Assembly (NCBI GenBank): GCA_030635525.1
Contig: DAOVYR010000001.1
Span: 1 to 26,048 of the forward strand
Length of the DNA stretch: 26,048 nt
Reading direction: 5' to 3'
Source of the DNA: Candidatus Nanohalarchaeota archaeon
GTDB lineage: Archaea; EX4484-52; B79-G9
In this document: in pieces, positions 2,117-23,135 of the stretch
Layout: each line of letters starts with the position of its first letter
Position numbering within the stretch: the first letter of the stretch is position 1
Notes under the pieces: model-generated
Told to the model about the DNA's origin: nothing
Databases searched by the model: none
Seen by the model: only the letters and a program-made list of their open reading frames with translations
Position numbers and translations under genes: made by a program

Positions 2117-2380
2117 TCACCCGCACTCAGGATAATCATCCGCCATATAATCCGCACCAGTAGTACTCACAGCACCAACAAACAAATTAACCCTCCACTC
2201 AAGCGCCTCCATACCGACCGCACCAGACCCCTCACGGCACACAAGAGTAAAATCCACATCAGTATCATATATCAACCCGAAACTCAATCCGCAGCATGTC
2301 TCACAGATCTCTTCCTCCTCCTCTTCATCCACGTACCCCCATTCATCCGCAACAGGCACCTCATACTTCTCGCCGGACAC
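2117..2380 (-). CDS. C-terminal part of the family C pilin-like gene, separated from 2396..3427 by an in-frame TAG
   Basis: Same frame as the upstream ORF (CCT GAT TAG GGG GAG TAT TGT GTT GTG TCC). Y-x4-D-x4-C...LEWR matches Y-x4-D-x4-C...LDWR at the C-terminus of paralog 16336..17436. Ends in a double TGA plus T-tract. Confidence 0.7.
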   Translation of the reverse strand: MSGEKYEVPVADEWGYVDEEEEEEICETCCGLSFGLIYDTDVDFTLVCREGSGAVGMEALEWRVNLFVGAVSTTGADYMADDYPECG

Positions 2381-2395
2381 AACACAATACTCCCC

Positions 2396-3427
2396 CTAAT
2401 CAGGATCAACTTCACAATCCGGCCTTTCACAAACAGACTCACTTGACACCCCATTGCATATTTTAGCAGTACCCCTGACCGCGCACCTGTCCCTCAAACA
2501 ACTTGCGCACGACTCACTGCAGCACCCCTCCGACTCATAACTGCGCCTCTTTTCATTAACAATAACCGGCTCCCTTATAGAAATACACTTAATCACCGCA
2601 TCACAACTCACATTCTCTCCTCCAAAATACATTCCGTCATAAACCAAAGTCCTGACAGCTTCATCCACAGCACTTCTCACAACATACTTCATCCTCTCCT
2701 CCCAGCATGGAAAAATCATCTCTGCCACCGTATCGGCATCAGGACAATATGGTCCGCTGCACGAGCAGGACTCAAAACTCAACCCCAAAGGCAAAATCGC
2801 ACCATCATTCAGCTTCCTCTCAATATTCTTCCGGACAACATCATCCAAAACCCACTCCTTCAATATCTCATAATCATACCGGAAATGATTTACCCCCAAA
2901 TCCTTCTCAACCACCACATCCTCATTGCTCACAAAAGAACTCCCGTCACTCATCCTGACATTCAGCCCACTGCCTCTGGCAACAATCTCCTTCTTATCAT
3001 CAGAAAATTCAGTATTCACGCAATCCATCCTGCCCACACTCAAAAAGTCAACCACATCTCCTTCATCTTCAATCAAAGAAATATACGAATTCACAATATC
3101 CATAGTCTCATCATTAACCTCCGAAAGAACATCGGAAAAACCAGGCACCTGCGGGACAACACACTGCCAATACCTAACCTCATCATTATCCCATCCCCCT
3201 TTTACCGCAACAGCACCCAAAGCATGACTGCCCGAAAGTCCAAGAGCCATTTCCACGTAAGAAAGAACCTTATAAGACTCCTCATTCAGCCTCGAAAAAA
3301 CAAGAGTCTCAGTAGAACTGATCTTTTCACTAATACCCATATTAGCATTATACTGCATCCATATAAGACCTGCAATAGCAAGCCCTATAATTATAAAACC
3401 CATAACAGCTACACTTACACCCTTCAT
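2396..3427 (-). CDS. Class III signal peptide (type IV pilin-like) protein, family C, Cys-rich; amber-interrupted
   Basis: MKG|VSVAVMGFIIIGLAIAGLIWMQY. Shares AVKGG...RYW...P...VL with 16336..17436 (AIAGGG...RYW...APTEEEVL). Start moved from 3451 to the ATG before KG. Confidence 0.8.
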   Translation of the reverse strand: MKGVSVAVMGFIIIGLAIAGLIWMQYNANMGISEKISSTETLVFSRLNEESYKVLSYVEMALGLSGSHALGAVAVKGGWDNDEVRYWQCVVPQVPGFSDVLSEVNDETMDIVNSYISLIEDEGDVVDFLSVGRMDCVNTEFSDDKKEIVARGSGLNVRMSDGSSFVSNEDVVVEKDLGVNHFRYDYEILKEWVLDDVVRKNIERKLNDGAILPLGLSFESCSCSGPYCPDADTVAEMIFPCWEERMKYVVRSAVDEAVRTLVYDGMYFGGENVSCDAVIKCISIREPVIVNEKRRSYESEGCCSESCASCLRDRCAVRGTAKICNGVSSESVCERPDCEVDPD

Positions 3428-3451
3428 ATCAATCATCCATAGACTTCTCAT

Positions 3452-3970
3452 TCACCATACATACAGGTACGCAATCGCATTTTCCCTGCTGTCCGCTATC
3501 GGAACAACAACCCTGTGCACCATAACATCAACATCATCACTCGGCACACTATTGAGTTCAAACGACTTAACACCATCCCTCTCAACAAAAAAATAATAAT
3601 TATAGTCTGGCAAAGTCCGGTCAAGATACTGCCTGACAACATCCATCGCATCTACCCTGGCACCGCCCGCCTGATACATCCAATCACTGGATTCATCACC
3701 GAACCGCTGCGATTCACCAATAACCCCTGCAACCGTACTATGAGCGCCATCAACATAATACATATTCACAAGCGCAATCTCCGCATACTTATACTTCTGC
3801 TGCTTCGCAATCATCTTCGAAGATTCAATCTTCTGGTTCTGCGTAACAAAAAAGAAATACAAAAAAACCACCGAAACAAGCATAATCACAGCCATGATAT
3901 TCAGCATTGACTCCTGCCCCTTTCTTCTAAAGCTCCGCCCCCCGCACAAACACTTCATAAAAACACACAT
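3452..3970 (-). CDS. Class III signal peptide (type IV pilin-like) protein, family A, minimal form (about 172 aa)
   Basis: RRKG|QESMLNIMAVIMLVSVVFLYFFF. Ends AIAYLYVW. TGATG overlap with the upstream gene. Confidence 0.8.
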   Translation of the reverse strand: MCVFMKCLCGGRSFRRKGQESMLNIMAVIMLVSVVFLYFFFVTQNQKIESSKMIAKQQKYKYAEIALVNMYYVDGAHSTVAGVIGESQRFGDESSDWMYQAGGARVDAMDVVRQYLDRTLPDYNYYFFVERDGVKSFELNSVPSDDVDVMVHRVVVPIADSRENAIAYLYVW

Positions 3971-4731
3971 CAATTAACAACTCTCAACAGTTTCTTATCA
4001 TGATTATATTTAAAAACAATATACTGAAGCCCTGCCTCAATCTGCATGAACTCAATATTATTGAAACTCAAAACCTTGCAAAAATCACCCGCGTACGTCC
4101 TAAGGCAGATGCTCTTCCTGCCATCCGCATCAGCCATCACAACCGGATAATCCAGCCTGATAGTCATAGAAGCACTCACATGCTTATCCATCTCAGACCC
4201 TGTCCTATACACCTTCTCAACCATCCCGACAACAGAGTCAAGATCGCCCTGCCTTAAATTCAGATTAAGCTCCCCCGCATTTACAGAACCGTCTTCATAT
4301 TTAATCGCAACAGGCATAGTGATCCCGAATTCATGCTTTAATCCATACACCCCCGAATCCTCTGCCTCTCCAAGCCGCCACGAACTCTCGTTTGGCGAAT
4401 CAATATCCCTGACAGTCGCACTCCACCCCAGTCTCTCATCCCGCGTACAGGGCGCCTCATTATTAACAAAATCCTCATTAAGCGCATCAAGCATACGCGC
4501 ACTCACAAGATAAGGATATCTGGTAGAATCACATGAAATGCAATCTATAACCTCATCAAACACAGGAATCGCCTTTGACTTAAAATCATATTCCTCTGCT
4601 TCCTGGGCAATACTAACATTCACCTCCAGAGTCTTTATCACAAAAATCGCAAATATACTTATAAGTATGATTAACATTATCGGCTGCGTAAATATATTTA
4701 TCTGCCCCTTATTCTGTTGCTCCCTAATCAT
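3970..4731 (-). CDS. Class III signal peptide (type IV pilin-like) protein, family B (253 aa)
   Basis: MIREQQNKG|QINIFTQPIMLIILISIFAIFVI. Shares DCI, GW..VRD...W..G, MP[VI]AI, GDL..V.G and DYP with 18784..19554. Start moved from 4848 to 4731, giving an 8-nt overlap with the upstream gene. Confidence 0.85.
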   Translation of the reverse strand: MIREQQNKGQINIFTQPIMLIILISIFAIFVIKTLEVNVSIAQEAEEYDFKSKAIPVFDEVIDCISCDSTRYPYLVSARMLDALNEDFVNNEAPCTRDERLGWSATVRDIDSPNESSWRLGEAEDSGVYGLKHEFGITMPVAIKYEDGSVNAGELNLNLRQGDLDSVVGMVEKVYRTGSEMDKHVSASMTIRLDYPVVMADADGRKSICLRTYAGDFCKVLSFNNIEFMQIEAGLQYIVFKYNHDKKLLRVVN

Positions 4732-5221
4732 CACTGCCCTCACAATCCTTGCATTTAGGGTCGCACACATCAAACAATCTGCACCCTTTATCGCATACTT
4801 CATCATCAATATTACATATTCCCGGGCACGTACCCTCCTTGAGCTCAATAATGCCCGATGTTTTGCGTATGCATATTGCCTGTGAATTCTCTATATCCGC
4901 ATCCCTGACATCTTCCGAAAGAATAACAGACACCGCATCTCTCGTCGGGTATTTTATAGAAAGTCTCCGCTCATCAACAGTCAGCCTATATGTTCTGGCA
5001 GAGATATCATACAGATACTCAACATTATCATGTTTGGACAAATAAACCATGCTTATCTTCGACTTCAATTCACCTGCAAACTCCCTTTCAGATGTAGCGA
5101 ACACATTGCTTATCTGGTAAATCACAAGATTATAAAACGACGCAAAAAACAATATCGACGCAATTAAGCCTCCAATAAAAAGAACAGACTCCACAGTAAC
5201 AGACGCTCCCTTTCGCCTCAT
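4724..5221 (-). CDS. Class III signal peptide (type IV pilin-like) protein, family D, minimal form (165 aa)
   Basis: MRRKG|ASVTVESVLFIGGLIASILFF. Ends in Cys-rich CNIDDEVCDKGC...DVCDPKC, as in 19568..22060 and 22176..23135. Start moved from 5320. Confidence 0.85.
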   Translation of the reverse strand: MRRKGASVTVESVLFIGGLIASILFFASFYNLVIYQISNVFATSEREFAGELKSKISMVYLSKHDNVEYLYDISARTYRLTVDERRLSIKYPTRDAVSVILSEDVRDADIENSQAICIRKTSGIIELKEGTCPGICNIDDEVCDKGCRLFDVCDPKCKDCEGSDD

Positions 5222-5431: not shown

Positions 5432-6901
5432 CTAATAATAACTCCACTCAAAATACCCGTCACCGTCAAAATCATCGCATGTGCCCCTTGAAAGATCATA
5501 GCACAATCCCAGGCAGCACACCGCATTATCTATTGAGAGCACATCGCAATCCGCATTGCTCTTGCACGGGGGTAGAGGAATAGCATCTATATTTCCAAAA
5601 GAGAAACTCTCAGTAAAATCCTTTGTCGGCAGGCATCCCACTTCATCCGCGAAGTAATCTACCTGTACCTTCAACTCACTCATATCCGTTGCTGTGGTCT
5701 CGATAATGATCTCAGACGTCTCACCGCCAAAAAGACTCTGCGGCGCATAAAGTATTTCATATTCCGGCGCATTCAGGCTGACAGTATCAATATGCGCAAG
5801 CATATCGCCTGTGTTCTCGACCATCACGCGCAGGTAAAGCGGCGCACCCTCATACAAAGTAGGCTGATAATAAGATCTCTTTATCTCAATATCCGGTCCC
5901 CTCTCACCGAGAGCAGGGTCGACTTCAGTCAATGTCATAGAATGGCTTGCACCGAACATCGACATTTCAAAATACTCATAAATCCAGTTCATGTCACTGA
6001 AATGATTGCCTCCGGTTCCGCTAAATCCAATCCTTGGATTATTTTCTTCATTTCCATATATTAATGGTTTAAACGTAGGCAGATAATTATATGCAATAGA
6101 AGGAACAGCGAATTTATCACCCCAGTTTGTGGAAGATAGACTGTCAAAATACATCATGCATATGGGATTTGTATCTACCTGATAGACCGACTCATCTTCG
6201 CTTTCACTTTCATCTAAAGGCGTCATTTCATCCTGGCAGCAGAGGAGCGAAAGATAAGCACTCCATACTCCATAATTACTGTCGACAGGAGTGCGATATA
6301 CGACAATATCCTCCCTGTTTACAGCATCATTATCAACAACATAAGTATCTGGCAGTGTGTCGCTCATAGTCGGTCTGTAGTTATTAGGATAACTGTTTAC
6401 CTTATGCCATTCAATAAGGTCTGTCAACATGCTTTCCAATTCTGGACAACTCAACCACTGTATAGGCGGCGTATCTTCAGGTCCTCCTTTTGAGAACCAT
6501 TCACCCGATTTCGTATCTGCAAACGTATTCAACTCATCGCCCTTGCAGAATGTGTCTCCGTCTTTTAATACATAACCTCTGTCAACAATCTGGAGCGACG
6601 AATATAGATTAATTGCCGTGTGAGTAATAAAAGGACCGTAACAGACAGGGCAATAGGAACTGGTGGTTCCTTCTTTTCTACATCCGTGCCCATCAATAAT
6701 ATCCTCCTCCAGTTCACCTAGGCTGTATCTCACGATATCCAATGCCTCAACATTCTCGCTCACTGCAGTCAATGCTTCGGGGTCAGTGATATTAAGCCCC
6801 CTCGACTGGATATGATTCACATACCCGCTTGCCATTGACACAATCATAAAAAAGCATATCATTGCCATACCAATAATAATTGATTTTTTTGTAATTTTCA
6901 T
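5432..6901 (-). CDS. Secreted or surface protein with a C-terminal Ig-like (CARDB-type) domain and Cys/Asp-rich tip (489 aa)
   Basis: Sec-type N-terminus MKITKKSIIIGMAMICFFMIVSMASG. LYEGAPLYLRVMVENTGD...SLFGGETSEIII is typical of Ig-like beta-sandwiches. Ends CKSNADC...CCLGLC...CDDFDGDG. Confidence 0.7.
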   Translation of the reverse strand: MKITKKSIIIGMAMICFFMIVSMASGYVNHIQSRGLNITDPEALTAVSENVEALDIVRYSLGELEEDIIDGHGCRKEGTTSSYCPVCYGPFITHTAINLYSSLQIVDRGYVLKDGDTFCKGDELNTFADTKSGEWFSKGGPEDTPPIQWLSCPELESMLTDLIEWHKVNSYPNNYRPTMSDTLPDTYVVDNDAVNREDIVVYRTPVDSNYGVWSAYLSLLCCQDEMTPLDESESEDESVYQVDTNPICMMYFDSLSSTNWGDKFAVPSIAYNYLPTFKPLIYGNEENNPRIGFSGTGGNHFSDMNWIYEYFEMSMFGASHSMTLTEVDPALGERGPDIEIKRSYYQPTLYEGAPLYLRVMVENTGDMLAHIDTVSLNAPEYEILYAPQSLFGGETSEIIIETTATDMSELKVQVDYFADEVGCLPTKDFTESFSFGNIDAIPLPPCKSNADCDVLSIDNAVCCLGLCYDLSRGTCDDFDGDGYFEWSYY

Positions 6902-8535
6902 GAATCTTCCCCTCCTTCTTTTTTATTTCTGCGCGCCTGCACAAGCAAAAACGCAGCGATCAAAAAAGTTATAGAAAAAATCACGACTAATGCCCTGACT
7001 GAATTGAATGAACCCTCCCCGTCAGGTACTTTCGGCTCGACACCAGCGTCTCCGGCTGCAAGCGCAATTGAAGTTTCAGCTGACAGATCGTGATTCGTTT
7101 CTCTTGCGACAATCTTGTATGACCCTTCAGCACCATAAATCTTGATGCTTTCATAAAATGTGCCGTCAATATTCTGGTCTTTGACGCGATGGATGATATC
7201 TCCGTCAGGATTCATTATATAGGCAAGTATATTCCCTCTCAGGTTATTGTTCTCATCATCTTTGAATGTGACCGTATAACGGAGTGTATCACCCTGCTTG
7301 TACAGGGATTTATCAGTATCTACATTCAGGGTCTTCTCAGTATTTTTGAATTTGGAATAATCATATATCAGTGTAATCTCATCAGCCATATTATCATTCT
7401 TATCATAAAGGCGCATCTTCAATGTCAAATAATTCGCGCTCTCTTTTGGCACAAACTCCCAGTTGACACCCATCGGGTCAGCGCTGATTATCCTCGTGTC
7501 CATTACATCAGTATATATTGTATTTCCGCTCTTGTCCCTGATCTCTACAGTGCCATGACCTTCAAATGTGCTTGAGTGATCTGCCGTATTTGAGACGCAG
7601 GCAAATACAGTTGTCTTTTCACCTGTCTCAAGCGGGAATCTGTCAATGCCAAGATACCCGATACCTCCTTTGGAACCCCCTACAGCGAGTCTCATCTTGA
7701 GTATTGATTTCTCATCCGCGCTCGTGGCAACGAATTTAATCTCATATGCGCCTGTTTTAAGCGCAGGTAGATCATACATGATATCTTCCACACCATTTGC
7801 TTCAAGAACAATTATCTTTTCCAGAGAATATTCTGCAATAGGTCTTTCAGTAACATCATCCCAGTCATATACATTCATTTTCAGTGTGACTTGCTTCTTT
7901 GCAGTGCCCTCATTTACCAGCTTTGTCTTGATACTGAGCGGCGTCGATGCATCAAAAGACGGGGAATTGGTCCCGAATGTATATTTATTATCATTGATAG
8001 TTGTGGATTCTTTATCAAGATATATGCGCGACACAGCATCTGCATTTTTCACATTGAACGTAGTCATTTCTCCCGGCACCCCCGGCGGTCCGTATGGAAG
8101 CATGCTTATCCCTACAAGATTGAACTTTTCACCTACAATGAAATATGTTTTCACCGTATATTTTCCGCCCTTTGCACCGCTAGGTACTTTCCATTTGAAA
8201 TAGAACGGAATCTTATCATCCCTATAGAGGCTGATATCATCTTCTGAGATAAATTCATCAACCATGTGCTCTATATCCTCAGGGCCGTCATAGAATATCT
8301 GCACCCTCACTTTACCCTCGACAATAGGCGCATCCATGTGGCTCAAAAGATTATAAAAGACACGGACCTCGTCACCAGGGGCATAACTCACCTTCTCCGG
8401 ATGCAGGTCATTGAATTCAAGCCCGCTCTGGAACTTATAGTACTTGAAACAGTCAGCATTTTCACTTGCAGCAAAAGCATGACTCGGCATGCACAAAATC
8501 AAAGCCACCATAATTGATATAATTATCTTTTTCAT
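6898..8535 (-). CDS. Membrane-anchored cell-surface protein with multiple Ig-like/MG2-like beta domains (545 aa)
   Basis: RBS AGGTGAT 4 nt before ATG. Signal peptide MKKIIISIMVALILCMPSHAFA. Repeated EKVSYAPGDEVRV / DKSLYKQGDTLRY motif. C-terminal TM plus basic tail (VVIFSITFLIAAFLLVQARRNKK). Confidence 0.75.
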   Translation of the reverse strand: MKKIIISIMVALILCMPSHAFAASENADCFKYYKFQSGLEFNDLHPEKVSYAPGDEVRVFYNLLSHMDAPIVEGKVRVQIFYDGPEDIEHMVDEFISEDDISLYRDDKIPFYFKWKVPSGAKGGKYTVKTYFIVGEKFNLVGISMLPYGPPGVPGEMTTFNVKNADAVSRIYLDKESTTINDNKYTFGTNSPSFDASTPLSIKTKLVNEGTAKKQVTLKMNVYDWDDVTERPIAEYSLEKIIVLEANGVEDIMYDLPALKTGAYEIKFVATSADEKSILKMRLAVGGSKGGIGYLGIDRFPLETGEKTTVFACVSNTADHSSTFEGHGTVEIRDKSGNTIYTDVMDTRIISADPMGVNWEFVPKESANYLTLKMRLYDKNDNMADEITLIYDYSKFKNTEKTLNVDTDKSLYKQGDTLRYTVTFKDDENNNLRGNILAYIMNPDGDIIHRVKDQNIDGTFYESIKIYGAEGSYKIVARETNHDLSAETSIALAAGDAGVEPKVPDGEGSFNSVRALVVIFSITFLIAAFLLVQARRNKKEGGEDS

Positions 8536-8585
8536 TAACATCACCTTTTAGTTACTGTATAATATATTTTAACTTATATATAAAA

Positions 8586-9887
8586 CTAACACATTATCTT
8601 CGCAGCAGCACGAAACTCAAACCCTTCAATCCCATTCATAAGCGGTACTTCAGCATAATTTGTAGTTGACATGACCCCGCACCCGCAATAGCACCCGCTC
8701 TCATCAAAATGAAGTTCTTCACGAATTGCCGAAAGAATCTTATTCGCCGCTACCTCTTGAGGCACATTGATCTCCTGCTTGATACCCTGCGCCTCTTTAA
8801 ACTCCGCATCAGGCATGCTCGAATAATCCGTCGTCAAAAACAACTTCCCCCCGGAATCCACATAATCCCGAACAGCATTAATTTCTGCATCAGACCACAG
8901 CCTGACATCCTCGCAGATAACCTCCCCGCTCCTCGAAACCCCGTATATGTCCTCACCCGAGCACCATCCCGGCCTGAAAATCCACACCTGCCCATAACTG
9001 CCAAGCAACGCAGGCGTTATTTCAGCATCATGCCTGAAATCATCAACAGTAATACTCTGTGCTTTAATACTATCAGTCAACTCCTCAAAATTCGCCAAAT
9101 TCGGATCCATCTTATTATCCTCCCATATAATAAGCATGGTATCATCCACCCCCAAAAGATTATTGAAATACCCCGCCACATTAGCCGCAAAATCAACCGT
9201 GGCCTTTGGCACATTGCATACACTTGAAGTACCCGCATGATTGCAAAAAGGCGTAGTATCCCCAAGCAAAACCATCTCATCCTCAACCATCACACACGTT
9301 GGCTGTCTGTTGCACCCCATAAGCACAGTATAATTGCACCTTGAAAAGACGCAGCCCGTCTCTGACACTGTCGCTTCAATATCATCCGCAAGCACCGAAA
9401 CACCGCACTCATTTTTCACAAAATAAGTAGGAAACGTAGTATATGTCGGCTTCTTCAAAATCTTATCCGCAAGCGACAAAACAGTCTTCTTCTGCCCGAA
9501 ATAACTCATCTCAATCTCGCACTTCAACCTTCGGCACGTCAGCCTGTCCTCCCTCAACTTCATGCACAAGTAACTCCCGACAAACGTCTCATGCTTCTCC
9601 ACCTTTTCATCAAACTCTTCCGGGAACACCTTATCATCATTCGCAATATAAAGACCCTCGACAATATCCGGGATACTGATATCATAGAAATCCTCCTCAC
9701 CCTCGCTGGCCGTACACAATGTATTAGTGCGCGTATATATTTCAGAAAACTGCTGTTTCGCATCTTGTCGCGCATTCTCCATAAAAACCTTACTAAGCAT
9801 ACTCGTAAATGTCCCGATAACCAGAAGCCCGATAATCAGCCCTGAAATCACCCAGTTCCACGCAAACGCCTTTCTTTGACTATTCAT
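8586..9887 (-). CDS. Class III signal peptide protein, family E, with a C-terminal GATase-like/DUF4350-like alpha/beta domain (433 aa)
   Basis: MNSQRKA|FAWNWVISGLIIGLLVIGTF. Core C...LC...C...C.I.MSY.G shared with 23233 and 24835. C-terminal AEINAVRDYVDSGGKLFLTTD resembles class I GATase-like folds (tentative). Confidence 0.75.
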   Translation of the reverse strand: MNSQRKAFAWNWVISGLIIGLLVIGTFTSMLSKVFMENARQDAKQQFSEIYTRTNTLCTASEGEEDFYDISIPDIVEGLYIANDDKVFPEEFDEKVEKHETFVGSYLCMKLREDRLTCRRLKCEIEMSYFGQKKTVLSLADKILKKPTYTTFPTYFVKNECGVSVLADDIEATVSETGCVFSRCNYTVLMGCNRQPTCVMVEDEMVLLGDTTPFCNHAGTSSVCNVPKATVDFAANVAGYFNNLLGVDDTMLIIWEDNKMDPNLANFEELTDSIKAQSITVDDFRHDAEITPALLGSYGQVWIFRPGWCSGEDIYGVSRSGEVICEDVRLWSDAEINAVRDYVDSGGKLFLTTDYSSMPDAEFKEAQGIKQEINVPQEVAANKILSAIREELHFDESGCYCGCGVMSTTNYAEVPLMNGIEGFEFRAAAKIMC

Positions 9888-9909: not shown

Positions 9910-10701
9910 TCACATTGCCGGCAATTCCTCGACTCTCTCATCTTCATAGACCCCGACTTTCGACGGCCATTCCTGACCATCAATTGTGACCTCAAACAAA
10001 AGGATTGGAACATCATCCCACTTCCATGGCCCCCTGGCATTCATAGAAACCACGGTCTTCCCCTCGGACTCATAGTGGCTCTCAATCAACTCTCTTGCCC
10101 TCTCTTCACTAAGCGACAACTCTATTAACTCACACTTCTTAGTATCTGTATTGCATTCCTCAGAAGGATTAGTACAAAAGCAGTCAATGCAGCAGGTATA
10201 TGGCTCCTCTGGTGACTCGCACCTGCCATCTCCGCATACGGGCTTAACACATATTTTCTCAGTAGGCGAACAGCGCATCCCCGTTCCACACCTGCAATCC
10301 TTGCAGTCAAAACAATTCTCAGACGCATCACAAACCCCGTCTCCGCACTCAGGCCCTTCAGGCTCTATTTCCTTTTCTACACACTTCTTCTCAAAAGAAC
10401 ATTCCTCATCTGCTTTGCATCCGCAGTCTTTCACGCAGTCCGCGCAATTCTCAGTCTTATCACACTTCCCGTCACCGCAAACTATTTTCGGATCCACCGG
10501 CGGATTATCACCAGAAGGACCATTATCGCCGGAATCTCCACCCATAAAAGAAAATATTGCAACAATAAGAACAATCACAACAGCAAGCCCTCCAACAAGA
10601 AATAACACTTTCTTCTTATCAATCTCTGCGCCAGCATCCTCTGTTTGATATTGCCCCGCACCTTCATCTGCACTATATTGATTAATCACATAAATCACCA
10701 T
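9910..10701 (-). CDS. Single-pass membrane protein with three CGDGxC Cys-rich repeats and a possible PepSY-like C-terminal domain (about 263 aa; alternative GTG start 10689)
   Basis: TM VLFLVGGLAVVIVLIVAIFSF. Repeats CGDGKCDKTENCADCVKDC, CGDGVCDASENCFDCKDC, CGDGRCESPEEPYTCCIDC. The track start at 10776 lies inside the upstream gene and was rejected. Confidence 0.75.
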   Translation of the reverse strand: MVIYVINQYSADEGAGQYQTEDAGAEIDKKKVLFLVGGLAVVIVLIVAIFSFMGGDSGDNGPSGDNPPVDPKIVCGDGKCDKTENCADCVKDCGCKADEECSFEKKCVEKEIEPEGPECGDGVCDASENCFDCKDCRCGTGMRCSPTEKICVKPVCGDGRCESPEEPYTCCIDCFCTNPSEECNTDTKKCELIELSLSEERARELIESHYESEGKTVVSMNARGPWKWDDVPILLFEVTIDGQEWPSKVGVYEDERVEELPAM

Positions 10702-13102: not shown

Positions 13103-13238
13103 TTCCCAAGTGGGTCCAATACACCGCAGCTTGCTGCGGATATAATTCACTTGGGAAGACTAAAAATCGCCGACTTAGAAATTCGCGTAATACTCCGGAG
13201 CTTGCTCCGATTGGGATAGCGAATTTCAGGCGATTTTT
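13103..13238. repeat. Tandem pair of long hairpins, each capped by G-CTTG-C (REP-like element or structured RNA)
   Basis: Hairpin 1: ttcccaagtg (13103-12) / cacttgggaa (13148-57) with inner ccgcag-cttg-ctgcgg. Hairpin 2: aaaaatcgcc (13162-71) / ggcgattttt (13229-38), gaaattcgc / gcgaatttc, inner cggag-cttg-ctccg. Confidence 0.8.
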
Positions 13239-13262
13239 TTTATTTCAGGAAATAATCATTCG

Positions 13263-14268: not shown

Positions 14269-14837
14269 GCTTTCACCATAACAGTATCATTAATCTCATT
14301 ATACTCAATTAATATTAGTGGCTGGTTCCTAATAAATGTATCCCTTACCTGCCATTCAATAGTATCATGGATCCCGCAATTGCCGTCATAGATTACAGCA
14401 TCGCCATTCTCATCGACAATCACATTATTCTCAAGCACATCACACCCACCCTCATCCTCAAGGAGCTTGGTAACATTGTATTCATATATATTATCATCAG
14501 GACGCTCCTCAGCAAGCAGCGCATAGCAAAGTCGCACATTATTCTCCTGCAGGCACCCTGCCTTATGCTGATAGCATGTAATGGCATGCGCCGCTATTTC
14601 GCGGGTAAAACTCTCAGTATCCGAATCCATTATCTTGTACCGCTCAGAACTGCATGTCGCCATCTCGCAAAACGCAGGCGGCTCCGCGATAGTTGAATAA
14701 ACAGAACAGAATATTCTATTCACAGAAAGATTTATTACCCCGAGAAACGAAAGAAGCACAAACAGCGACACAAAACCAATCGTGATTATACCTATAGTCT
14801 CAATTGCCAGCCCTTTTTTATTGCGATATTTACCCAT
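14265..14837 (-). CDS. Class III signal peptide protein, family F (190 aa)
   Basis: MGKYRNKKG|LAIETIGIITIGFVSLFVLL. ITCY...RLCYAL motif. ATGA overlap with 13831..14268. Confidence 0.85.
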   Translation of the reverse strand: MGKYRNKKGLAIETIGIITIGFVSLFVLLSFLGVINLSVNRIFCSVYSTIAEPPAFCEMATCSSERYKIMDSDTESFTREIAAHAITCYQHKAGCLQENNVRLCYALLAEERPDDNIYEYNVTKLLEDEGGCDVLENNVIVDENGDAVIYDGNCGIHDTIEWQVRDTFIRNQPLILIEYNEINDTVMVKA

Positions 14838-14886: not shown

Positions 14887-15534
14887 CTAGCAATTTTCAG
14901 TACACTTAACACAAAGCTCGTCCGCCGTCCCTCTGCACTCATCATAGAAACTATCGCATAGCACACCCGAAGAGCATCTGGAATGCATTTCTTCACAATT
15001 ATTCTTGAAATCATCGCATAATAGCTTGCACTTCTCAACGCAGCACGCCCCGACACAAACCGAATTCACCTCTATAATCTCAATCCGCCTTCTTGATGCC
15101 ACATACGTTATCTTGACTTCACTATCTTTATTAAAAACTTCCCAATACACTTTATCCTCTTCACCGCAATCCTCATCTGCCTCATCTTCTATATTCAGAT
15201 GACTGTTCGCCAGATACCCGCAATCAAGATACCTGTTAAAATCAGACTCCGTATAGTTCTCAGTAGAATTCACAGTCAACGTATAACAGACATCATTCGC
15301 TTTAGAATTGCCCTTTTTATTCAGCTTCCAGCAATTTTTTGCAAGTATCGCAAGAGTCTCAGAAACAAAATCCGAATCTCCAATCACATTGTCTTCCTCA
15401 AACGAGTTCTTTACACCGATTCCAAACTTACTGACCATGGCAAAAAGCAGCATCCCCAGCGCAAGCGCGAAAATAATCATAATCAGTTCAGGATAAGACA
15501 TTACTGCCCCTTTTCTTCTCTTCATATAAACCAT
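14887..15534 (-). CDS. Class III signal peptide protein, family F, with a Cys-rich helical tail (about 215 aa; alternative starts 15549 and 15525)
   Basis: MKRRKG|AVMSYPELIMIIFALALGMLLF. KNCW...DVCYTL motif. Tail CVGACCVEKCKLLCDDFKNNC...C. Confidence 0.85.
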   Translation of the reverse strand: MVYMKRRKGAVMSYPELIMIIFALALGMLLFAMVSKFGIGVKNSFEEDNVIGDSDFVSETLAILAKNCWKLNKKGNSKANDVCYTLTVNSTENYTESDFNRYLDCGYLANSHLNIEDEADEDCGEEDKVYWEVFNKDSEVKITYVASRRRIEIIEVNSVCVGACCVEKCKLLCDDFKNNCEEMHSRCSSGVLCDSFYDECRGTADELCVKCTENC

Positions 15535-15551
15535 ATAATCTATATCCATAC

Positions 15552-15565
15552 CAGTATATATAATT
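15552..15565 (-). promoter_or_regulatory. TATA-box-like motif (minus strand AATTATATATACTG)
   Basis: TTATATAT begins about 30 nt upstream of the ATG at 15534. Near-identical copies at 17500-17514, 17518-17531 and 22152-22166. Confidence 0.55.
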
Positions 15566-16251
15566 TACTTCAGCATATATTCAAGAGCATCTTCAAGGTT
15601 CGCAACCTCAATGACCTTGATGCCAACCTCCCGACCAACATCAATCTCTTCCTTTTCAACAACACCCACACACTCAGAACCCTCCGCACACACCTTTCTC
15701 TCAACATAATTAGTATCAATTGCATTACCCTCAGGCACAAGAAATGTCTCAACCCCCTCCTTCTTCAGAGCCCGTGCCTTATCCAGTATTTTACCTGCGC
15801 TTAAAATCCTTCCATCCTGTCGGATTGCCCCTGTAATCGCAACAGACGGCATAACCTCCCTCCCCATAGCAGCCGCAGCAATCCCAACCGCAACCGCAGC
15901 ACCCATAGACTCGCCTTCAATCATGGCACCCCCGCAATCAAACGACACCGCCACATCATATTCCTCAGCACAAGCCTCTGCAATCCCGAAACCGGCACTC
16001 GCAGCATCCTTAATCATCGGCTGCGCCCTATACTCATCCACATACGCATCCCCGATATCCACAAGCACTCTCCCCGTACCCGGCACAAGAGATATGGATG
16101 CATCAACCACCTGCGCACCCTTTGACCCATTCATGACCGGCACCTTTATTGTTGCAGAAGACAAATACCCTCCATAATCTCCATTGCCCGCAACCATCCA
16201 TACAGCAATCAAAAAAGCACAAACAAACCCAATATCCTTACCATAGCTCAT
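15565..16251 (-). CDS. Exported or membrane-anchored Lon-type (S16) serine protease domain without an AAA+ module (about 228 aa)
   Basis: N-terminal hydrophobic segment. EGESMG Ser (15907-09) and ILDKARA Lys (15778-80) are exactly 43 residues apart, the canonical Lon dyad spacing. VAITGAI..DG.I and FLVPEGN motifs. Confidence 0.85.
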   Translation of the reverse strand: MSYGKDIGFVCAFLIAVWMVAGNGDYGGYLSSATIKVPVMNGSKGAQVVDASISLVPGTGRVLVDIGDAYVDEYRAQPMIKDAASAGFGIAEACAEEYDVAVSFDCGGAMIEGESMGAAVAVGIAAAAMGREVMPSVAITGAIRQDGRILSAGKILDKARALKKEGVETFLVPEGNAIDTNYVERKVCAEGSECVGVVEKEEIDVGREVGIKVIEVANLEDALEYMLK

Positions 16252-16289
16252 ACCTACCAATATGGCAGAACATACTTAAATTTGAATTG

Positions 16290-17539: not shown

Positions 17540-18787
17540 TCAATTCCACTGTTTCAGCGTAAGATTCAGATACTCAAAATTCGGCATCGGCGTAGCCACA
17601 ATAAACGACCGTATCCTCTTTCCTTCAGGTATCTGTGAGCCAAGCCTTACAGGCTCTCTTGCAAACGATTGATTGTACACCATATCCCTTATCGAATCAG
17701 ATGCTGATGAACCCGCCGATAAATCAAACATTTCACCGCCCGTTTCATTACCCATCTCAGTCATCCATTCACTCAACAATCCTTTGCCACAGTCACAATA
17801 AGTGACTCCTCCTGTAGTTTCAACAGTCAAATCCACACAATCATTTGGATTATTGGAAAAACATATCACTCCGCACGAATCTGCTTTCAATGGAAATATC
17901 TTTACCTTATTATCTTTTGCAGACCCTATACCCTTATCAAGAGTTTTTCTCTGTGTTCCGCAACCCGCTTCGGTGCATCCGCACTCACTACCGGCAGTTA
18001 GCTCATCAGATAACGGCATCCCTATTCTGATAGAGAAATCATTCCATCCATCTTCACCTGGTCCGGCCTCAGATAGACAAGCAACTCCATTGCCCCAGTC
18101 TTCATCTGTTGTATGCGGATAAGAACATTCAGTTTCCTTTTCAGAAATCGCATGACAGTCAAAATCCGGTATATCTGCAAAATCCGCACAAGTAACTGTT
18201 GCTGTATGCACTATACTGGTTGTCATATTGTCCTTCCAGTAGCATGTAGCCTGCGATTCCAGGAAATACAAATCAATCGTCGTATCTTTCCCTTCCTTTT
18301 TTAATTCATTTAATATATCCGGAACTTCTGTTTTAAGAGCCATAATATCATCACACATAGACCTCGATGTATCAGCCACAACAAAAATCTGCACACCAGA
18401 CCTGTGCGGTATCGGCAGCGTCAGATTCCAATGTCCTTCCCCGTAAATCGCATCAAGCCTCTTTGCAACCTCTTCGTCCACATTGATGACAAGCGGATTC
18501 TTAGGTCCCCCAAGATCAACAGTAGTATTCTCAAGAAACCCTACATACCCCAGGAGCTCAAGAAAAGTCTTCCCGCTCCGATCCTCAGTCATCACCATAA
18601 ACGCATTCACACCGGACCTGAAAGACGCTTCCTCCTGCGCACTCTGCCCTGTCCCCTGCGTCGTAAGCTTCTGGTCAACCACAACAGATTTCAGGACAAT
18701 AATAATGATAGTAACAACAACAACAAGAATCAAAAAATTAAGTATCTCTCCAGCCTGTCCCTTCTTAATGTTTCTCATCTTCATCAT
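17540..18787 (-). CDS. Class III signal peptide protein, family A, with an inserted von Willebrand factor A domain (415 aa)
   Basis: KKG|QAGEILNFLILVVVVTIIIIVL. MIDAS DxSxS as IFVVADTSRSM (18359-18373), later MPLSDE. KIFPL and TGGEMFDL are vWA-like strands. Ends LTLKQWN, like family A. Confidence 0.8.
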   Translation of the reverse strand: MMKMRNIKKGQAGEILNFLILVVVVTIIIIVLKSVVVDQKLTTQGTGQSAQEEASFRSGVNAFMVMTEDRSGKTFLELLGYVGFLENTTVDLGGPKNPLVINVDEEVAKRLDAIYGEGHWNLTLPIPHRSGVQIFVVADTSRSMCDDIMALKTEVPDILNELKKEGKDTTIDLYFLESQATCYWKDNMTTSIVHTATVTCADFADIPDFDCHAISEKETECSYPHTTDEDWGNGVACLSEAGPGEDGWNDFSIRIGMPLSDELTAGSECGCTEAGCGTQRKTLDKGIGSAKDNKVKIFPLKADSCGVICFSNNPNDCVDLTVETTGGVTYCDCGKGLLSEWMTEMGNETGGEMFDLSAGSSASDSIRDMVYNQSFAREPVRLGSQIPEGKRIRSFIVATPMPNFEYLNLTLKQWN

Positions 18788-19554
18788 GTTCTCACCACCA
18801 CCATGTCTGAAGAATACCTGTACTCTGCTGATATCTGATATTCTCCTCTTACCTTAATCCCGTCAAAGAATATCTCGCAATACATATCTCTGCACACTTT
18901 ATCCTTGCCAAGCACCATGCACAATTTTCCATCTTCATATAATATCGGATAATCTATATGAAATGTCCTTTTATCTTCAAAACTGCTGTAACTTCTTCTC
19001 CCTGCCATACAAATATAGTCAAAAAATCCTGCCACCCGCTCAAGATCCCCTGAAAATGTAGTGACCTTGATCCTCCCGGGATTTACCTCTGTTGCAGAAT
19101 GCCTTATTGCAATCGGCATTGAAGACACTTTTCTCTGGTCAAGCACTCTGTTCGCGATCTTCTTATCGTAATCCGGTGCCCCGAATGTCCATACATCATC
19201 AGTCATCAAATCCCTGACCTCAACATGCCACCCGCGAATATAATTTCTCGCACACTCCGGCTCTACATCAGCATATTTTTTCTCAAACTCTTCAAGTTTT
19301 TCAACAGACACAATTGAGCCATAAACCCCCAGCTCAAGAGGATTATATGCAATGCAATCCTCGGAATTAGTCAAGATGGATATTGTGGCACTTGTATCAA
19401 CAATCGCATCAATCGCCCCGGCATCTTTATACGCCTGCATTTTATAGTTTTGCAGCGCATAAAAAATCACAAACAGTACAATGATTGTCATAATCAGCGC
19501 AATCGGCTTCACAATATAATATTGTCCCTTTTTGGTATTATTATCTACTGACAT
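18784..19554 (-). CDS. Class III signal peptide protein, family B (256 aa)
   Basis: TKKG|QYYIVKPIALIMTIIVLFVIFYAL. Paralog of 3970..4731. ATGA overlap with 17540..18787. Confidence 0.85.
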   Translation of the reverse strand: MSVDNNTKKGQYYIVKPIALIMTIIVLFVIFYALQNYKMQAYKDAGAIDAIVDTSATISILTNSEDCIAYNPLELGVYGSIVSVEKLEEFEKKYADVEPECARNYIRGWHVEVRDLMTDDVWTFGAPDYDKKIANRVLDQRKVSSMPIAIRHSATEVNPGRIKVTTFSGDLERVAGFFDYICMAGRRSYSSFEDKRTFHIDYPILYEDGKLCMVLGKDKVCRDMYCEIFFDGIKVRGEYQISAEYRYSSDMVVVRT

Positions 19555-19567
19555 AATGCATCACATT

Positions 19568-22060
19568 TTAACATCCCATTGGATTTCCTGCCTCCATTGG
19601 ATTCCTCTTAAATGGGCATGATACGCTGTTATCTGCAAGTATGCTGCATCCCTCTGTAATTGCATGTGGATGATGTATAGAGCAACTTGACAGATCATCG
19701 CACCACGGGCAGTCACACTCCACATCACCGCCATTTACCTCGCAGTTATCAGCATCCGTCGGTATTATCGCTTGCCCGTCACAGACAATCCCCTGGAAAC
19801 CATACCGTCCATTATCATTCCATAAATCCTTCATACTTGTACAATATAAATCACCGCTTAAAGTGCTCATCGGGTAGACCTCATGAAATGTTGTATCAAC
19901 AACAATCCAGTTTCCATCCCCTGCAGCATTGCATTCATCAACAATAAACTGCCCTCCCTGATGCAACTTATAATTACCATATTTACCAAGATTCTCAATC
20001 GAGCTATCGCACTGTAAAAGATTCCATGCATGAGCCGTATCACCGACATTATAGAATGCAGACCATACATTATGCGCAGGAACACCAAGTGTCCTCAATA
20101 TACTGGTCACCGCAGTAGAATGGTCCCCACAGTAGCCTACACCGCAGCACTTATCATATACTTCCGCAGTAATAGTGCACGCACCATAGCATGAACTTGC
20201 CGGCGGGCAACAGTTTTGGAAATCTGCGAAATAATCTTCATTATGAACTATAGTCTTACTTGCAGGTTGCACAAGCGTAGCACTGTACCTGCTGCCATCA
20301 AACGCCCACCCGTCCGGCGAATCCGCTAACCAGTTCTCAATCACCTGCTCTATGTCCCATCCGCGCCTATCAAGGAAATTCATAACATCCCGCTGGCAAA
20401 CCTCAAGAGCATCAGTATGCCACACAAGCCCATCCTGATCAATAACCGACTTAGTCCACACACCTATATCAACCTTCGCCCCGCAATCCGGCTCTCCGCA
20501 GTCCGGATCCCATCTCTTCCACCTGCTCAGATCACAGTCTGTGTCGCAGACACCATCATCAACAGTTGAACAACGGCTATCCCCGAAAACGCTCGCACTT
20601 CCGGGTCCGCCGCCACCGGGACAGTCCGCAGCATCGGCAGCACACGGTCCGGTGCAGACCCATGCGCATCCATTATCATTCCCAATGCAATCCGGATCAG
20701 CTGCTGCACCAAAACATGGATAATAACCATTCATATCCGCCCAATCACCAATGCATGTCTGCTCACTATAGCAAATACCGTCTGCTGCATCAGTACAGTC
20801 TTCAAAATTATGCCCTGGAACAGGCAATGTTGTAGTATAAGGGGTCTCCCAGTTTTTTGGATGCGTACCGTCAATTCCAATAGGCCATTTTGCAATATGA
20901 TTAGGTATATCCTCACTCGCAGACGAAAATGGGCTAATCTCACACCATCCGTTCCCGTCGCATGCAGGCTTGTTTGGATCAGAATTATCAGCGCAAATCA
21001 TCGACCCGGGGCAGCATGCCAGATCAAGTCCCATATCCTCCCCGCAACATGGTATGCTTGAACAATCATCACCCTCTCCCGCGCACTTCCCGCAATCAGG
21101 GTCATACAGCCCGCCGCAATCAGGATCGCATATCCCATTCTCACTCCTGTCAAGCCATGAAGTATTCACAGGTCCCGCGCAATCAAGATCACACACTCCG
21201 TCCGGATAAAGCCTCTTAACAACTGTACCCTTATACCCGCAGTCAAGATCGCAAAACCCATCCTCAGAAACAAAAGTCCCGTTAACATCAGTCATATTAT
21301 ACTTATTACAGTCAACATCACAAATCCCCCAGCTTGACGTCCCGTTATTCAGGCAGTCAATATCACACATACTATCCTCATCCATATGCGAATCACCGTC
21401 ACATATCCTATCCTCGTCAGTAGACCTTTTGTACCCTTTCCCGTCATCCTCAAAAGCCCTGATGCAGTCCCTTGCCTCATTCACCTTATCCTCTTCATTA
21501 GTAAAGCAGTCCCTGTCACATATATTGTCGCTTGCAAGAGAACAGCGGTCATCACACACCTGATCCTCAACCTCATCCACATTGCAGTCCGGGTCGCAGT
21601 CAGCATTCACTATACATGCCGGATCGCATCTATTATCATTAGTATTGCAAATGCACTTATCATCACTCAATGCAATGCGCATATCATCCTGATTCTTCAC
21701 CATGCACAGATATTTTGGCTTCTCAATCGTATAAGGTCTCGTATGCGTAAGTGCCATAAAAGGCGCACTATAACTCTTTCCGTCTGCACTCACTTTAAGC
21801 CTCTTATAATCCACCTCTACATCCACATTCATACCCTTCGGTAGCGTGTAAAGTATGCCCACACTGCCTGCCTCAGCAGCAACCCTGTCAATACTTACAG
21901 CAATATCCTTTGCAACAAAAGCAAGCGCAGATTCTTCAGCCGCCTCAGACTGCCCGCCAAAAATCATAGAACCCATAGACGCCATCAGCACAAACGAAAT
22001 AATTACACCGAAAGCTAACAAAACAGTTTCAGAAATCACAATTGCTCCTTTACGCTTCAT
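19568..22060 (-). CDS. Class III signal peptide protein, family D, with a Cys/Asp repeat stalk and a C-terminal transglutaminase-like (Cys-His-Asp) domain (830 aa)
   Basis: MKRKG|AIVISETVLLAFGVIISFVLM. About 11 CDxDC-type repeats. GYCGDHSTAVTSILRTLGVPA (Cys 20129-31), AHAWNL (His 20030-32), WIVVDTT (Asp 19895-97). Start moved from 22135. Confidence 0.85.
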   Translation of the reverse strand: MKRKGAIVISETVLLAFGVIISFVLMASMGSMIFGGQSEAAEESALAFVAKDIAVSIDRVAAEAGSVGILYTLPKGMNVDVEVDYKRLKVSADGKSYSAPFMALTHTRPYTIEKPKYLCMVKNQDDMRIALSDDKCICNTNDNRCDPACIVNADCDPDCNVDEVEDQVCDDRCSLASDNICDRDCFTNEEDKVNEARDCIRAFEDDGKGYKRSTDEDRICDGDSHMDEDSMCDIDCLNNGTSSWGICDVDCNKYNMTDVNGTFVSEDGFCDLDCGYKGTVVKRLYPDGVCDLDCAGPVNTSWLDRSENGICDPDCGGLYDPDCGKCAGEGDDCSSIPCCGEDMGLDLACCPGSMICADNSDPNKPACDGNGWCEISPFSSASEDIPNHIAKWPIGIDGTHPKNWETPYTTTLPVPGHNFEDCTDAADGICYSEQTCIGDWADMNGYYPCFGAAADPDCIGNDNGCAWVCTGPCAADAADCPGGGGPGSASVFGDSRCSTVDDGVCDTDCDLSRWKRWDPDCGEPDCGAKVDIGVWTKSVIDQDGLVWHTDALEVCQRDVMNFLDRRGWDIEQVIENWLADSPDGWAFDGSRYSATLVQPASKTIVHNEDYFADFQNCCPPASSCYGACTITAEVYDKCCGVGYCGDHSTAVTSILRTLGVPAHNVWSAFYNVGDTAHAWNLLQCDSSIENLGKYGNYKLHQGGQFIVDECNAAGDGNWIVVDTTFHEVYPMSTLSGDLYCTSMKDLWNDNGRYGFQGIVCDGQAIIPTDADNCEVNGGDVECDCPWCDDLSSCSIHHPHAITEGCSILADNSVSCPFKRNPMEAGNPMGC
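21729..21811. repeat. 83-nt perfect direct repeat, copy 1
   Basis: Identical base for base to 22804-22886. Confidence 0.9.
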
Positions 22061-22151
22061 ATTCACGTCTCTAATACTACTCAATATATATCTACTAAAC
22101 ACATATATTGTAGCAACTACTATATAAAATTTCAAACCATTCCTTCAATTT

Positions 22152-22166
22152 CAGTATATATATTAT
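22152..22166 (-). promoter_or_regulatory. TATA-box-like motif (minus strand ATAATATATATACTG)
   Basis: Shares agtatatatattat with 17501-17514. Lies in the AT-rich gap upstream of 19568..22060. Confidence 0.5.
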
Positions 22167-22175
22167 TATCTCCCA

Positions 22176-23135
22176 TCAGAATCCCATATCACAATCCATA
22201 TCATACAACTCCCCGCAGTCAGGATCGCATACATTATTCACAATAGCGCAATCAAGGTCACACACCCCATCCTCATAGAGCATCTTCACCCCATTATCTC
22301 CCGCAACATACCCGCAATCCAGATCACAAAACCCGTCTTGTGAGAAATACACCCCATTCTCCATATACATCCCATACTTATTGCAGTCAACATCACAAAG
22401 CCCCCAGCTTGACGTCCCGTTATTCATACAGTCAATATCACACATCTCATCCTCAACCATATGTGAATCCGCATCGCATATCCGGTCCTCACTAACAGAC
22501 CTCTTATAGCCATTATCATCAGTCTCAAAAACATCAATACAATCCCTTACCTCATTCACCATATCCTTCTCATTAGTAAAACAATCCATATCACATACCC
22601 TATCACCCTCCTTTGAACACCGCCTGTCGCACACCCTGTCCTCAACCCCATCCGCATTGCACGCCGGGTCACATGCAGGCCCAACAATGCATGCCGGATC
22701 GCACCGTTTATCAGCAGTATAGCACACGCACTTATCCTTGCTCAAAGAAATCCTCATATCATCCTGGTTTTTCACCATGCACAGATACTGTGGCTTATCG
22801 ATTGTATAAGGTCTCGTATGCGTAAGTGCCATAAAAGGCGCACTATAACTCTTTCCGTCTGCACTCACTTTAAGCCTCTTATAATCAACATCCACATCCA
22901 CTTTCATCCCCTTGGGCACTTTGTAGACCATGGCCACACTGCCCGCCTCCGCCGCCACACTATCCAGATTCAAAGCAATATCCTTCGCAACAAGCGCAAG
23001 CGCCGAAATATCCGCCGCCTCAGACTGCCCGGAAAAAAGCATAGATCCCATAGTTCCCATCAGTACAAACGATATAATGATGCCAAAAGCTACAAGAACA
23101 GTTTCAGAAATAACAATTGCGCCCAGCCGCCTCAC
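22176..23135 (-). CDS. Class III signal peptide protein, family D, with a Cys/Asp repeat stalk and no catalytic domain (319 aa)
   Basis: GTG start, RRLG|AIVISETVLVAFGIIISFVLM. Colinear with the N-terminal part (about 320 aa) of 19568..22060, ending CDPDCGELYDMDCDMGF. Confidence 0.85.
   Translation of the reverse strand: MRRLGAIVISETVLVAFGIIISFVLMGTMGSMLFSGQSEAADISALALVAKDIALNLDSVAAEAGSVAMVYKVPKGMKVDVDVDYKRLKVSADGKSYSAPFMALTHTRPYTIDKPQYLCMVKNQDDMRISLSKDKCVCYTADKRCDPACIVGPACDPACNADGVEDRVCDRRCSKEGDRVCDMDCFTNEKDMVNEVRDCIDVFETDDNGYKRSVSEDRICDADSHMVEDEMCDIDCMNNGTSSWGLCDVDCNKYGMYMENGVYFSQDGFCDLDCGYVAGDNGVKMLYEDGVCDLDCAIVNNVCDPDCGELYDMDCDMGF
22804..22886. repeat. 83-nt perfect direct repeat, copy 2
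   Basis: Identical to 21729-21811. Confidence 0.9.

Follow-up and report, generated by a model that had tools for sequence, protein, structure and literature searches.

The question raised by the locus described here is what a set of pilin-like genes, encoded twice in the same order on one archaeal contig, is for, and whether it is inherited as a unit. The stretch analysed (the window, 26,048 bp) is the complete contig C56 of a metagenome-assembled genome (MAG) of Candidatus Nanohalarchaeota archaeon. From its sequence alone, the original prediction had been that four gene families, D, B, A and C, form a cassette that was duplicated long ago with its order kept, and that the two copies give alternative pilus tips, one of them plain and the other equipped with a vWA adhesin and an enzyme. 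Following our analyses, the contig is essentially a single large surface-filament subunit locus with two subtypes of a five-family unit, E-D-B-A-C, next to which several secreted proteases and three small prepilin-like genes (the P3-P2-P1 trio) are encoded, and the five-family unit is probably the minor-pilin/adhesin module of a Tad/Epd-like filament.

The MAG comprises 1.25 Mb, is 79% complete and belongs to a small-genome archaeon of the DPANN type from a cold seep. The genomes nearest to it are MAGs that come from Guaymas and cold-seep sediments and bear the label 'Candidatus Nanohalarchaeota archaeon', and the window sequence was recovered almost letter for letter from cold-seep metagenomes. 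Every sizeable gene of the window, including all of those described below, is carried by the minus strand, and the GC skew is strongly negative throughout.

Paralogy and order of the prepilin-like genes

All eight open reading frames (ORFs) of the two D-B-A-C sets were confirmed on the minus strand and in that order. Copy 1 consists of D1 (4724-5221), a minimal D-family protein of 165 amino acids (aa), B1 (3970-4731), a plain form of family B, A1 (3452-3970), a short form of family A with 172 aa, and C1 (2117-3427), which in this assembly is interrupted by a TAG at 2396-2398. Copy 2 consists of D2a (22176-23135) and D2b (19568-22060), B2 (18784-19554), again a plain form, A2 (17540-18787) and C2 (16336-17436). 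The packing is operon-like, with overlaps of 8 nt between D1 and B1, 1 nt between B1 and A1 and 4 nt between B2 and A2. The motifs that had been quoted in pairs for B, C, D and A are indeed present in these sequences.

The relationship between the copies was analysed with genus-level profiles, which are alignments of the orthologues from seven congeners, compared by hhalign. For B the link is direct, with a BLASTP E-value of 2.5e-15 over 248 aa between B1 and B2 and an hhalign value of 99.4%, which remained at 99.3% after removal of the N-terminal helix. Family D behaved similarly (97.2%, and 94.9% without the helix), and D1 was matched in BLASTP by D2a and D2b with E-values of 2e-6 and 1.5e-10 respectively. 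D2a and D2b are 72% identical over 325 aa and are a recent tandem pair. The support for C1 versus C2 was only moderate (86%, and 39% without the helix), and the globular parts of these proteins alone recruited each other (E-values of 1e-19 and 4e-15) in an iterative hidden Markov model (HMM) search with one extra round, to which the cassettes of other lineages had been added.

The direct comparison of A1 with A2 was negative. The hhalign value was 2.7%, the alignment covering no more than the signal and helix; a shuffle test after excision of the A2 insert gave z = 0.7, no better than controls; and the link was absent in BLASTP and in an iterative HMM search on the globular parts alone. Searches of 5.8 billion proteins for homologues of A1 and A2 returned only close relatives of the queries (9 and 7 matches). 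The comparison of all short-form with all long-form A proteins, relatives included, gave 98.5% (E-value 2.4e-15) over the N-terminal 110 columns, and a second match over the last ~40 columns, beyond an insert of ~250 residues. The A1 family alone was matched at 97.3% by the short forms of other lineages and at 93% by their long forms. When the extended families were compared all against all, the only high value outside the true pairs was that of P1 with P3 (92.7%), every other pair being at or below 63%.

On these comparisons of sequences and profiles, all four paralogue pairs hold, because C and A are linked once other lineages are added and because the link is specific in the all-against-all comparison. 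The pairing that had been proposed for the four families is therefore direct for B and D, passes through intermediates for C, and is transitive only, by way of relatives, for A.

In both copies D is preceded by a fifth prepilin-like family, E. Its three genes encode proteins of 433 aa upstream of copy 1 (8586-9887, with a C-terminal extension) and of 299 aa (23233-24132, with a Cys/Asp-rich C-terminal extension) and 188 aa (24835-25401) upstream of copy 2. The 188-aa protein matched the 23233 and 8586 gene products in BLASTP at 5e-17 and 2e-13, and the hhalign values among the three members were 97.7-98.8%, support equal to that of B. In this contig two accessory genes (5432-8544) stand between E and D1; they are missing in the congener G001, where E directly abuts D1. 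Other lineages share this upstream arrangement. In the locus L064, an E gene (29% identity over 403 aa to the 433-aa protein), an MG2 protein (34% identity, E-value 8e-112) and a homologue of the 5432 gene (24%, E-value 8e-24) precede D, and in L062 a homologue of the 9910 gene precedes E. The genes 9910-8586-6898-5432 in front of D1 are thus in the same order as their counterparts in loci of other lineages.

Copy 1, with D1-B1-A1-C1 and then two coiled-coil genes, was found in 7/7 congeners. The phylum of this genome is represented by only 42 species genomes, and the B profile detected a single clear case in it outside the genus, in a genome of another family (G021). The locus there reads E (192 aa), a 503-aa HExxH protein, a 250-aa anchored protein, B (525 aa), a gene at the A position and C (438 aa). 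The insert in this B opens with a DxxxS motif, and the A-position protein has 174 aa and ends in W.

An exhaustive HMM search of 1.84 billion representative proteins with the B profile gave 183 clusters at 50% identity, 128 of them with an E-value of 1e-10 or better. Their architectures are of two kinds, plain proteins of ~240-270 aa and proteins split near position 110 by inserts of 200-1000 aa, among which are VWA domains, Laminin_G_3 (a ConA-like lectin domain; P0047) and propeller repeats. The same gene order was seen in six metagenome contexts. In the phylum to which the MAG of one of these contexts belongs (genomes of 0.5-1.7 Mb), B was present in 57 of 301 sampled genomes. In the ESM Atlas, the neighbours of B2 carry the labels Aenigmatarchaeota, Woesearchaeota and Nanobdellota, and one B match is annotated as Woesearchaeota.

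We annotated 20 loci of this other phylum with our own family HMMs. B was followed by A in 17/20 and A by C in 14/20, while D lay just upstream of B in 15/20, with an extra ORF between D and B in one clade. E was adjacent upstream of D in 9/20, and the full E-D-(x)-B-A-C order was collinear in 12/20. The P3-P2-P1 trio stands beside the cassette in G021 and often near it in the loci of the other phylum. The recurrence of the order is far beyond chance: it is found in 7/7 congeners for copy 1, in G021 and in most of 26 loci from other lineages. The order D-B-A-C and its conservation in other genomes, as first proposed, are thus borne out, but the number four is not, since E belongs to the unit, the P trio accompanies it and one clade has an additional gene between D and B.

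A separate observation was made in L083 (G213:C4, 2712-4252), where a second, divergently oriented pair, of an A in the short form (175 aa) with a C of 333 aa, lies beside D-B-A (this A having 416 aa). This pair is a partial second cassette in the other phylum.

Origin and integrity of the two copies

The proposal of an old duplication was examined with maximum-likelihood trees built from 41 B and 32 C sequences. In both trees the copy 2 protein falls in a clade with sequences of the other phylum, from L061/L062, L064 and L079-L088 (support 100/100 for B and 100/99 for C), and the copy 1 protein groups with L063 and L065 (99/95 and 95/90). The two trees are congruent, and the first-round HMM matches of A and D split identically. 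Since B and C agree on the grouping of each copy with the other phylum, the phylogenies argue that the two copies are ancient cassette subtypes, inherited as units and common to other phyla, rather than products of a duplication within this genus. The age of the copies and the retention of order, as anticipated, are thus borne out, the cassette is inherited as a unit, and a local duplication is not supported. The co-occurrence of the subtypes in one genome would go back either to an ancient duplication or to transfer among DPANN lineages; two different cassette types also co-occur in G066 and G072.

The subtypes differ in the position of their inserts. The copy 2 subtype combines a plain B with an A that has the vWA insert, other subtypes have the insert in B and a short A, and in copy 1 and L065 neither gene has one.

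The TAG in C1 raises the question of whether copy 1 is intact. All six C1 orthologues (6/6) are single ORFs of 436-446 aa, and the four closest of them have TAT or TAC as the codon aligned to the TAG. Contigs from two cold-seep DNA runs, X1 and X4, have G and not C at position 2396, which gives TAC (Tyr), and differ from the window at just 3-4 other positions over more than 3 kb. The same G was seen in a contig of the metatranscriptome run X14, and a fourth, more diverged contig from an RNA library (X17) keeps C at 2396. Recoding of TAG was considered and rejected: TAG terminates 134 of 671 long ORFs genome-wide and five genes in the window. Because the orthologues are uninterrupted, the near-identical contigs read TAC and TAG is an ordinary stop, the interruption is an assembly error or a minor allele and does not belong to the gene as such.

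Both G004 and G007 have a complete copy 2, and there as well as here its ORFs are intact, at 57-72% identity. In G002 the copy is without A, C and the Lon-like gene, in G005 it is without D, A and C, and in G001, G003 and G006 (68-89% complete) a B2-type gene was not found. Copy 2 is therefore either dispensable or incompletely sampled. These gaps are what could be expected if there were no alternative functional tips at all, and one copy were instead redundant, decaying, or laterally acquired and on its way out; the grouping of the copy 2 genes with those of another phylum is likewise compatible with lateral acquisition. However, the intact ORFs in three genomes speak against this, the sole stop codon is in copy 1 and is not seen in the near-identical contigs of the two cold-seep DNA runs, two cassette types are also found together in G066 and G072, and the genomes without a B2-type gene are those of limited completeness. 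We regard redundancy or decay as an unlikely account. The contrast that had been drawn between a plain copy and one with a vWA adhesin and an enzyme fits the domains described below, and the idea of alternative tips is a deduction from it that has to be read together with the incomplete copy 2 of two congeners.

Prepilin-type N-termini, cargo and filament machinery

The proteins of all eight families open with a short basic leader, the last two residues of which are K/R-G/A, and continue with a hydrophobic stretch. In the alignments the invariant residues are K8, G/A9 and Q10 in B, K17, G18 and Q19 in A, K4 and G5 in D, and K2 and G3 in C; the class III-type N-termini of E and P1-P3 were recognised by inspection. 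K/R at -2 and G/A at -1 before a hydrophobic segment of ~20 residues are the features of a class III signal, and P1 gave a weak match to Class_IIIsignal (PF04021; E-value 0.53). The proteins are in this respect pilin-like, as had been supposed. The AlphaFold2 model of A1 has a helix of 55 residues (14-68) and then a 4-5-stranded sheet, with a mean predicted local distance difference test score (pLDDT) of 68.7, and this modelled order is the general arrangement of a pilin.

Two proteins of copy 2 carry a recognisable additional domain. The insert of ~250 aa in A2 (about 17663-18400) opens with DTSRS, a DxSxS motif at residues 139-143, and residues 130-375 are modelled as an alpha/beta domain, for which the top Foldseek matches are integrin beta I-like, CMG2 vWA and TFIIH p44 domains, with E-values of about 2e-4. 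D2a and D2b share a stalk of Cys/Asp repeats, which in D2a is without an enzyme domain and in D2b is followed by a C-terminal transglutaminase-like core. The Pfam score for Transglut_core in D2b is 22.8 bits against a cut-off of 23, and the motifs GYCGDH...HAW...VVDT with the Cys, His and Asp are present. Judged from motifs and models, A2 and D2b appear to be modular pilins, with a prepilin carrier and a recognisable module in one polypeptide.

A filament machine is encoded elsewhere in the genome. On contigs C12 and C107 there are T2SSE ATPases, each with two T2SSF platform ORFs beside it, and this is the 'system 1' (Epd-like) layout that has been reported for Nanobdellati (PMC13705601). Further pilin-like genes are also present elsewhere in this genome. 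Candidates for the shaft of the filament are two very short prepilin-like ORFs, on C34 (6502-6753) and C136 (3730-4020), which encode 83 and 96 aa and resemble major pilins of the Flp/EpdE type that have no globular domain. A polytopic membrane protein of 733 aa without a Pfam match, encoded in G021 (L027, G021:C5, 7837-10038), lies head to head with E and is followed by P-type small pilin genes, and it could be a divergent platform protein.

Several results weigh against the assignment of E-D-B-A-C to a Tad/Epd-like filament. Foldseek searches with the A1 model gave nothing below an E-value of 0.1 and retrieved no pilin from the PDB, and an exhaustive VIA-align search with the same model peaked at Z 6.7 with PAS/Cache-like sensor domains, below the tool's noise guide. 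In the A2 model, confidence is low over the pilin part (pLDDT 22-48). None of A-E was recognised in Pfam and NCBIfam scans, all names in the databases are 'hypothetical protein', and the B and D1 profiles match no PDB sequence. The window is without an ATPase or platform gene, and such genes do not adjoin the cassette in five other genomes either. The A24 prepilin peptidase (PF01478) was not found in this 79%-complete genome; it is above the cut-off in every relative tested (the congeners G002, G005 and G006, and also G021 and G143). Expression of the locus is at most hinted at by fragmentary metatranscriptome contigs from two libraries, which overlap parts of C1, B1, the C25 gene, P1, C2 and D2b; they come from diverged strains, DNA can occur in such libraries, and this counts on the same side, as does the incomplete state of copy 2 in G002 and G005. 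A multimer prediction with mature D1, B1, C1 (up to the stop) and A1, in which B1 was set as the partner, gave no call either way, as a control with the C chain replaced scored too near the real complex.

A lead from the ESM Atlas to the haloarchaeal families DUF7285/7287/7288 was dropped: DUF7287 had no match in this genome, its matches in relatives were mostly confined to N-terminal helices, and no paper mentions these families.

The lack of a pilin fold match, of a curated pilin family and of machinery genes at the locus would be explained if these were single-pass, signal-anchored surface proteins with N-termini that are merely prepilin-like, gathered in a membrane-bound envelope complex with no type IV filament machine. 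Against such anchors stands the invariance of K/R-G/A before the helix in eight separate families, which would not be expected of plain anchors, and genes for the peptidase, the ATPase and the platform do occur in the lineage. The separation of machinery and cassette fits the remark that the pilins of DPANN archaea lie apart from the machinery (PMC13705601). We find the signal-anchor explanation quite improbable, the least favoured of those considered here.

The cargo of the cassette bears on a different explanation, in which a short pseudopilus or surface scaffold, comparable to the type II secretion pseudopilus or the Sulfolobus bindosome, exports or displays the neighbouring enzymes and no adhesive tip is formed. 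The locus is unusually rich in domains of the protease and protease-inhibitor types (Peptidase_C25, Lon_C, MG2 and Transglut_core), an HExxH metalloprotease occupies the D position of G021, and archaeal type IV filament machineries that present substrate-binding proteins have been discussed (PMC13705601). The commonest cargo in the relatives of B and A is nevertheless adhesive and not catalytic (vWA, ConA-like lectin, propeller), and the protease genes are inconsistent members of the conserved core; a scaffold of this kind appears to us unlikely, although less so than the plain anchors. The module of a Tad/Epd-like filament is the reading that we favour.

Cargo domains on a pilin are a known hallmark of tip-exposed minor pilins. 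In Streptococcus sanguinis, the modular pilins PilB (vWA) and PilC (ConA-like lectin) are tip-exposed adhesins (PMC8179133). Modular pilins such as PilB, PilC, GspK and CofB combine a prepilin N-terminus, a small pilin module and a grafted functional module (PMC8179133), as the proteins here would do, and the types of module coincide with those of S. sanguinis, vWA being found in A2 and many relatives of B and a Laminin_G/ConA-like lectin domain in P0047. GspK resembles the proteins here in having its extra domain inserted inside the pilin domain (PMC8179133), whereas in PilB the module is appended C-terminally and in A and B the modules interrupt the carrier, so that its N- and C-terminal parts lie on either side. 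Unlike the bacterial modular pilins, the archaeal carriers do not have the bacterial N-methylation motif family, Pfam contains none of their families, and no homology in sequence or fold was detected.

The bacterial sets FimU-PilV-PilW-PilX with PilY1, and GspH-I-J-K, are also fixed-order operons of several low-abundance prepilin-like subunits, and the association with a vWA-bearing adhesin is shared, since PilY1 has a vWA domain. The unit described here differs from them in its at least five families and the small pilin trio. Homology to FimU-PilVWX or GspHIJK was not found in Pfam (A-D), among PDB sequences (B and D profiles) or by fold (A1 model).

Closer in gene layout is the Epd or 'system 1' locus of Methanococcus maripaludis, together with bacterial TadE/F/G, where an ATPase with two platform genes is found as in this genome (PMC4858521, PMC13705601, PMC3875500). 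Minor-pilin loci of Tad/Epd systems contain at least five minor pilins and adhesins, and bacterial TadG carries a vWA domain (Makarova et al., PMC4858521). The likeness is one of layout, with several minor pilin-like genes in one cluster; in the Epd locus the pilins are encoded with the ATPase, the platform and their own peptidase, whereas here the pilin set is apart from the machinery. In this the cassette is like the pilin sets of euryarchaeal type IV pili, which evolve independently of the ATPase/TadC module and are mobile units, duplicated or exchanged and served in trans by that module (PMC4858521), although the protein families and the lineage are different. A 2026 census of archaeal type IV filaments described DPANN pilins as scattered and left open their role in a surface structure (PMC13705601), in contrast to the strongly ordered set described here.

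By analogy with these systems we infer that the subunits are incorporated into a filament, are located at its tip, contact each other in a complex and have an adhesive role. A prepilin peptidase would cleave them after the conserved K/R-G/A and the hydrophobic N-terminal helix would keep them anchored. The Tad/Epd-like machine, with its ATPase and two platform genes on other contigs, would then assemble them in low abundance at the start of the filament, which becomes the tip. Lineage-specific modules of the vWA, ConA-like lectin, beta-propeller, transglutaminase-like and metalloprotease types, inserted or appended, would be carried by B, A, D and E. Subtype 1 would be bare, and subtype 2 would display the vWA domain of A2 and the transglutaminase-like domain of D2b on its Cys/Asp stalk, with attachment to a host cell or a surface as the likely use.

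Cultivated DPANN archaea all live attached to host cells (PMC11291902), and the molecules that make this contact are largely unknown. Perhaps E-D-B-A-C and P1-P3 together are the ordered, widely conserved module with which DPANN archaea attach to hosts: minor pilins that co-evolve and form a Tad/Epd-like tip, in which the exchangeable adhesin and protease cargo and the co-existing subtypes set the host or surface that is bound; we put this forward tentatively, with less confidence than the filament assignment itself. If it is true, the 'scattered' type IV filament genes of DPANN archaea gain a defined and testable adhesive apparatus. The cassette proteins are concrete candidates for host recognition.

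Sets of minor pilins and pilins with cargo are already established, as is the movement of pilin sets independently of the ATPase module, and the concept of minor or modular pilins, established in bacteria and anticipated for archaea, is unchanged by this work. In the literature outside subscription journals we found no account of these families, of their strict order across DPANN phyla, of the insertion hot spots in B and A or of two ancient subtypes in one genome. What is added is an ordered prepilin-like set, inherited as a unit in at least two phyla, with an insertion hot spot design as in bacterial tip adhesins. The families are new ones for annotation, and cassette subtype and cargo type provide a comparative handle that can be set against host or habitat.

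Neighbouring genes and further observations

The genes around the two copies include several accessory proteins. Between the two E genes upstream of copy 2, a protein with a Pfam Zn_ribbon match and a C-terminal transmembrane helix is encoded (24172-24795), and its position is kept in G002 and G005. Directly after C2 lies a gene for a membrane-anchored Lon_C (S16) protease-like protein (15565-16260; Pfam Lon_C, E-value 2.6e-12), found at the same place in G004 and G007, which might process or regulate the products of cassette 2. The P3-P2-P1 trio (14887-15549, 14265-14837 and 13831-14268), small prepilin-like genes with class III-like N-termini, is located between the copies and is not duplicated.

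Upstream of copy 1, a Peptidase C25-like protein (10695-13058; Pfam Peptidase_C25, E-value 6e-12) is carried on a Cys/Asp stalk. The N-terminus of this gingipain-like protein is hydrophobic and without a K-G site, and its Cys/Asp-rich repeat stalk is common to the D2 proteins, which accounts for the cross-recruitment of D and C25 in the HMM iterations. It is followed by a Cys-rich transmembrane protein (9910-10776), the homologue of which was mentioned above upstream of E in L062. The two accessory proteins between E and D1 (6898-8544, with a Pfam MG2 domain, and 5432-6901, with the collinear homologue in L064) are predicted to be secreted or anchored.

Two coiled-coil proteins without signal peptides (609-2059) follow C1 wherever the contig of a congener extends that far. 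Pfam gave only weak coiled-coil matches for them. The one of 124 aa shows 84-96% identity across the genus, a conservation well above that of the pilin-like genes.

Scans of the window for tRNA genes and Rfam families found nothing. The intergenic region 13100-13245 contains a double-hairpin element that is present in multiple copies, with at least seven more (87-97% identity) on other contigs of this genome. The contig depth over the element is about seven times that of its flanks, and there are loose ends at both borders.

Within D2a/D2b, a contig from run X1 joins and skips between 21299-22116 and 22176-23135, at one point skipping 199 positions over a diverged stretch of the same length and at another going back 818. 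This pattern points to recombination or gene conversion between the two paralogues, or else to an ambiguity of assembly.

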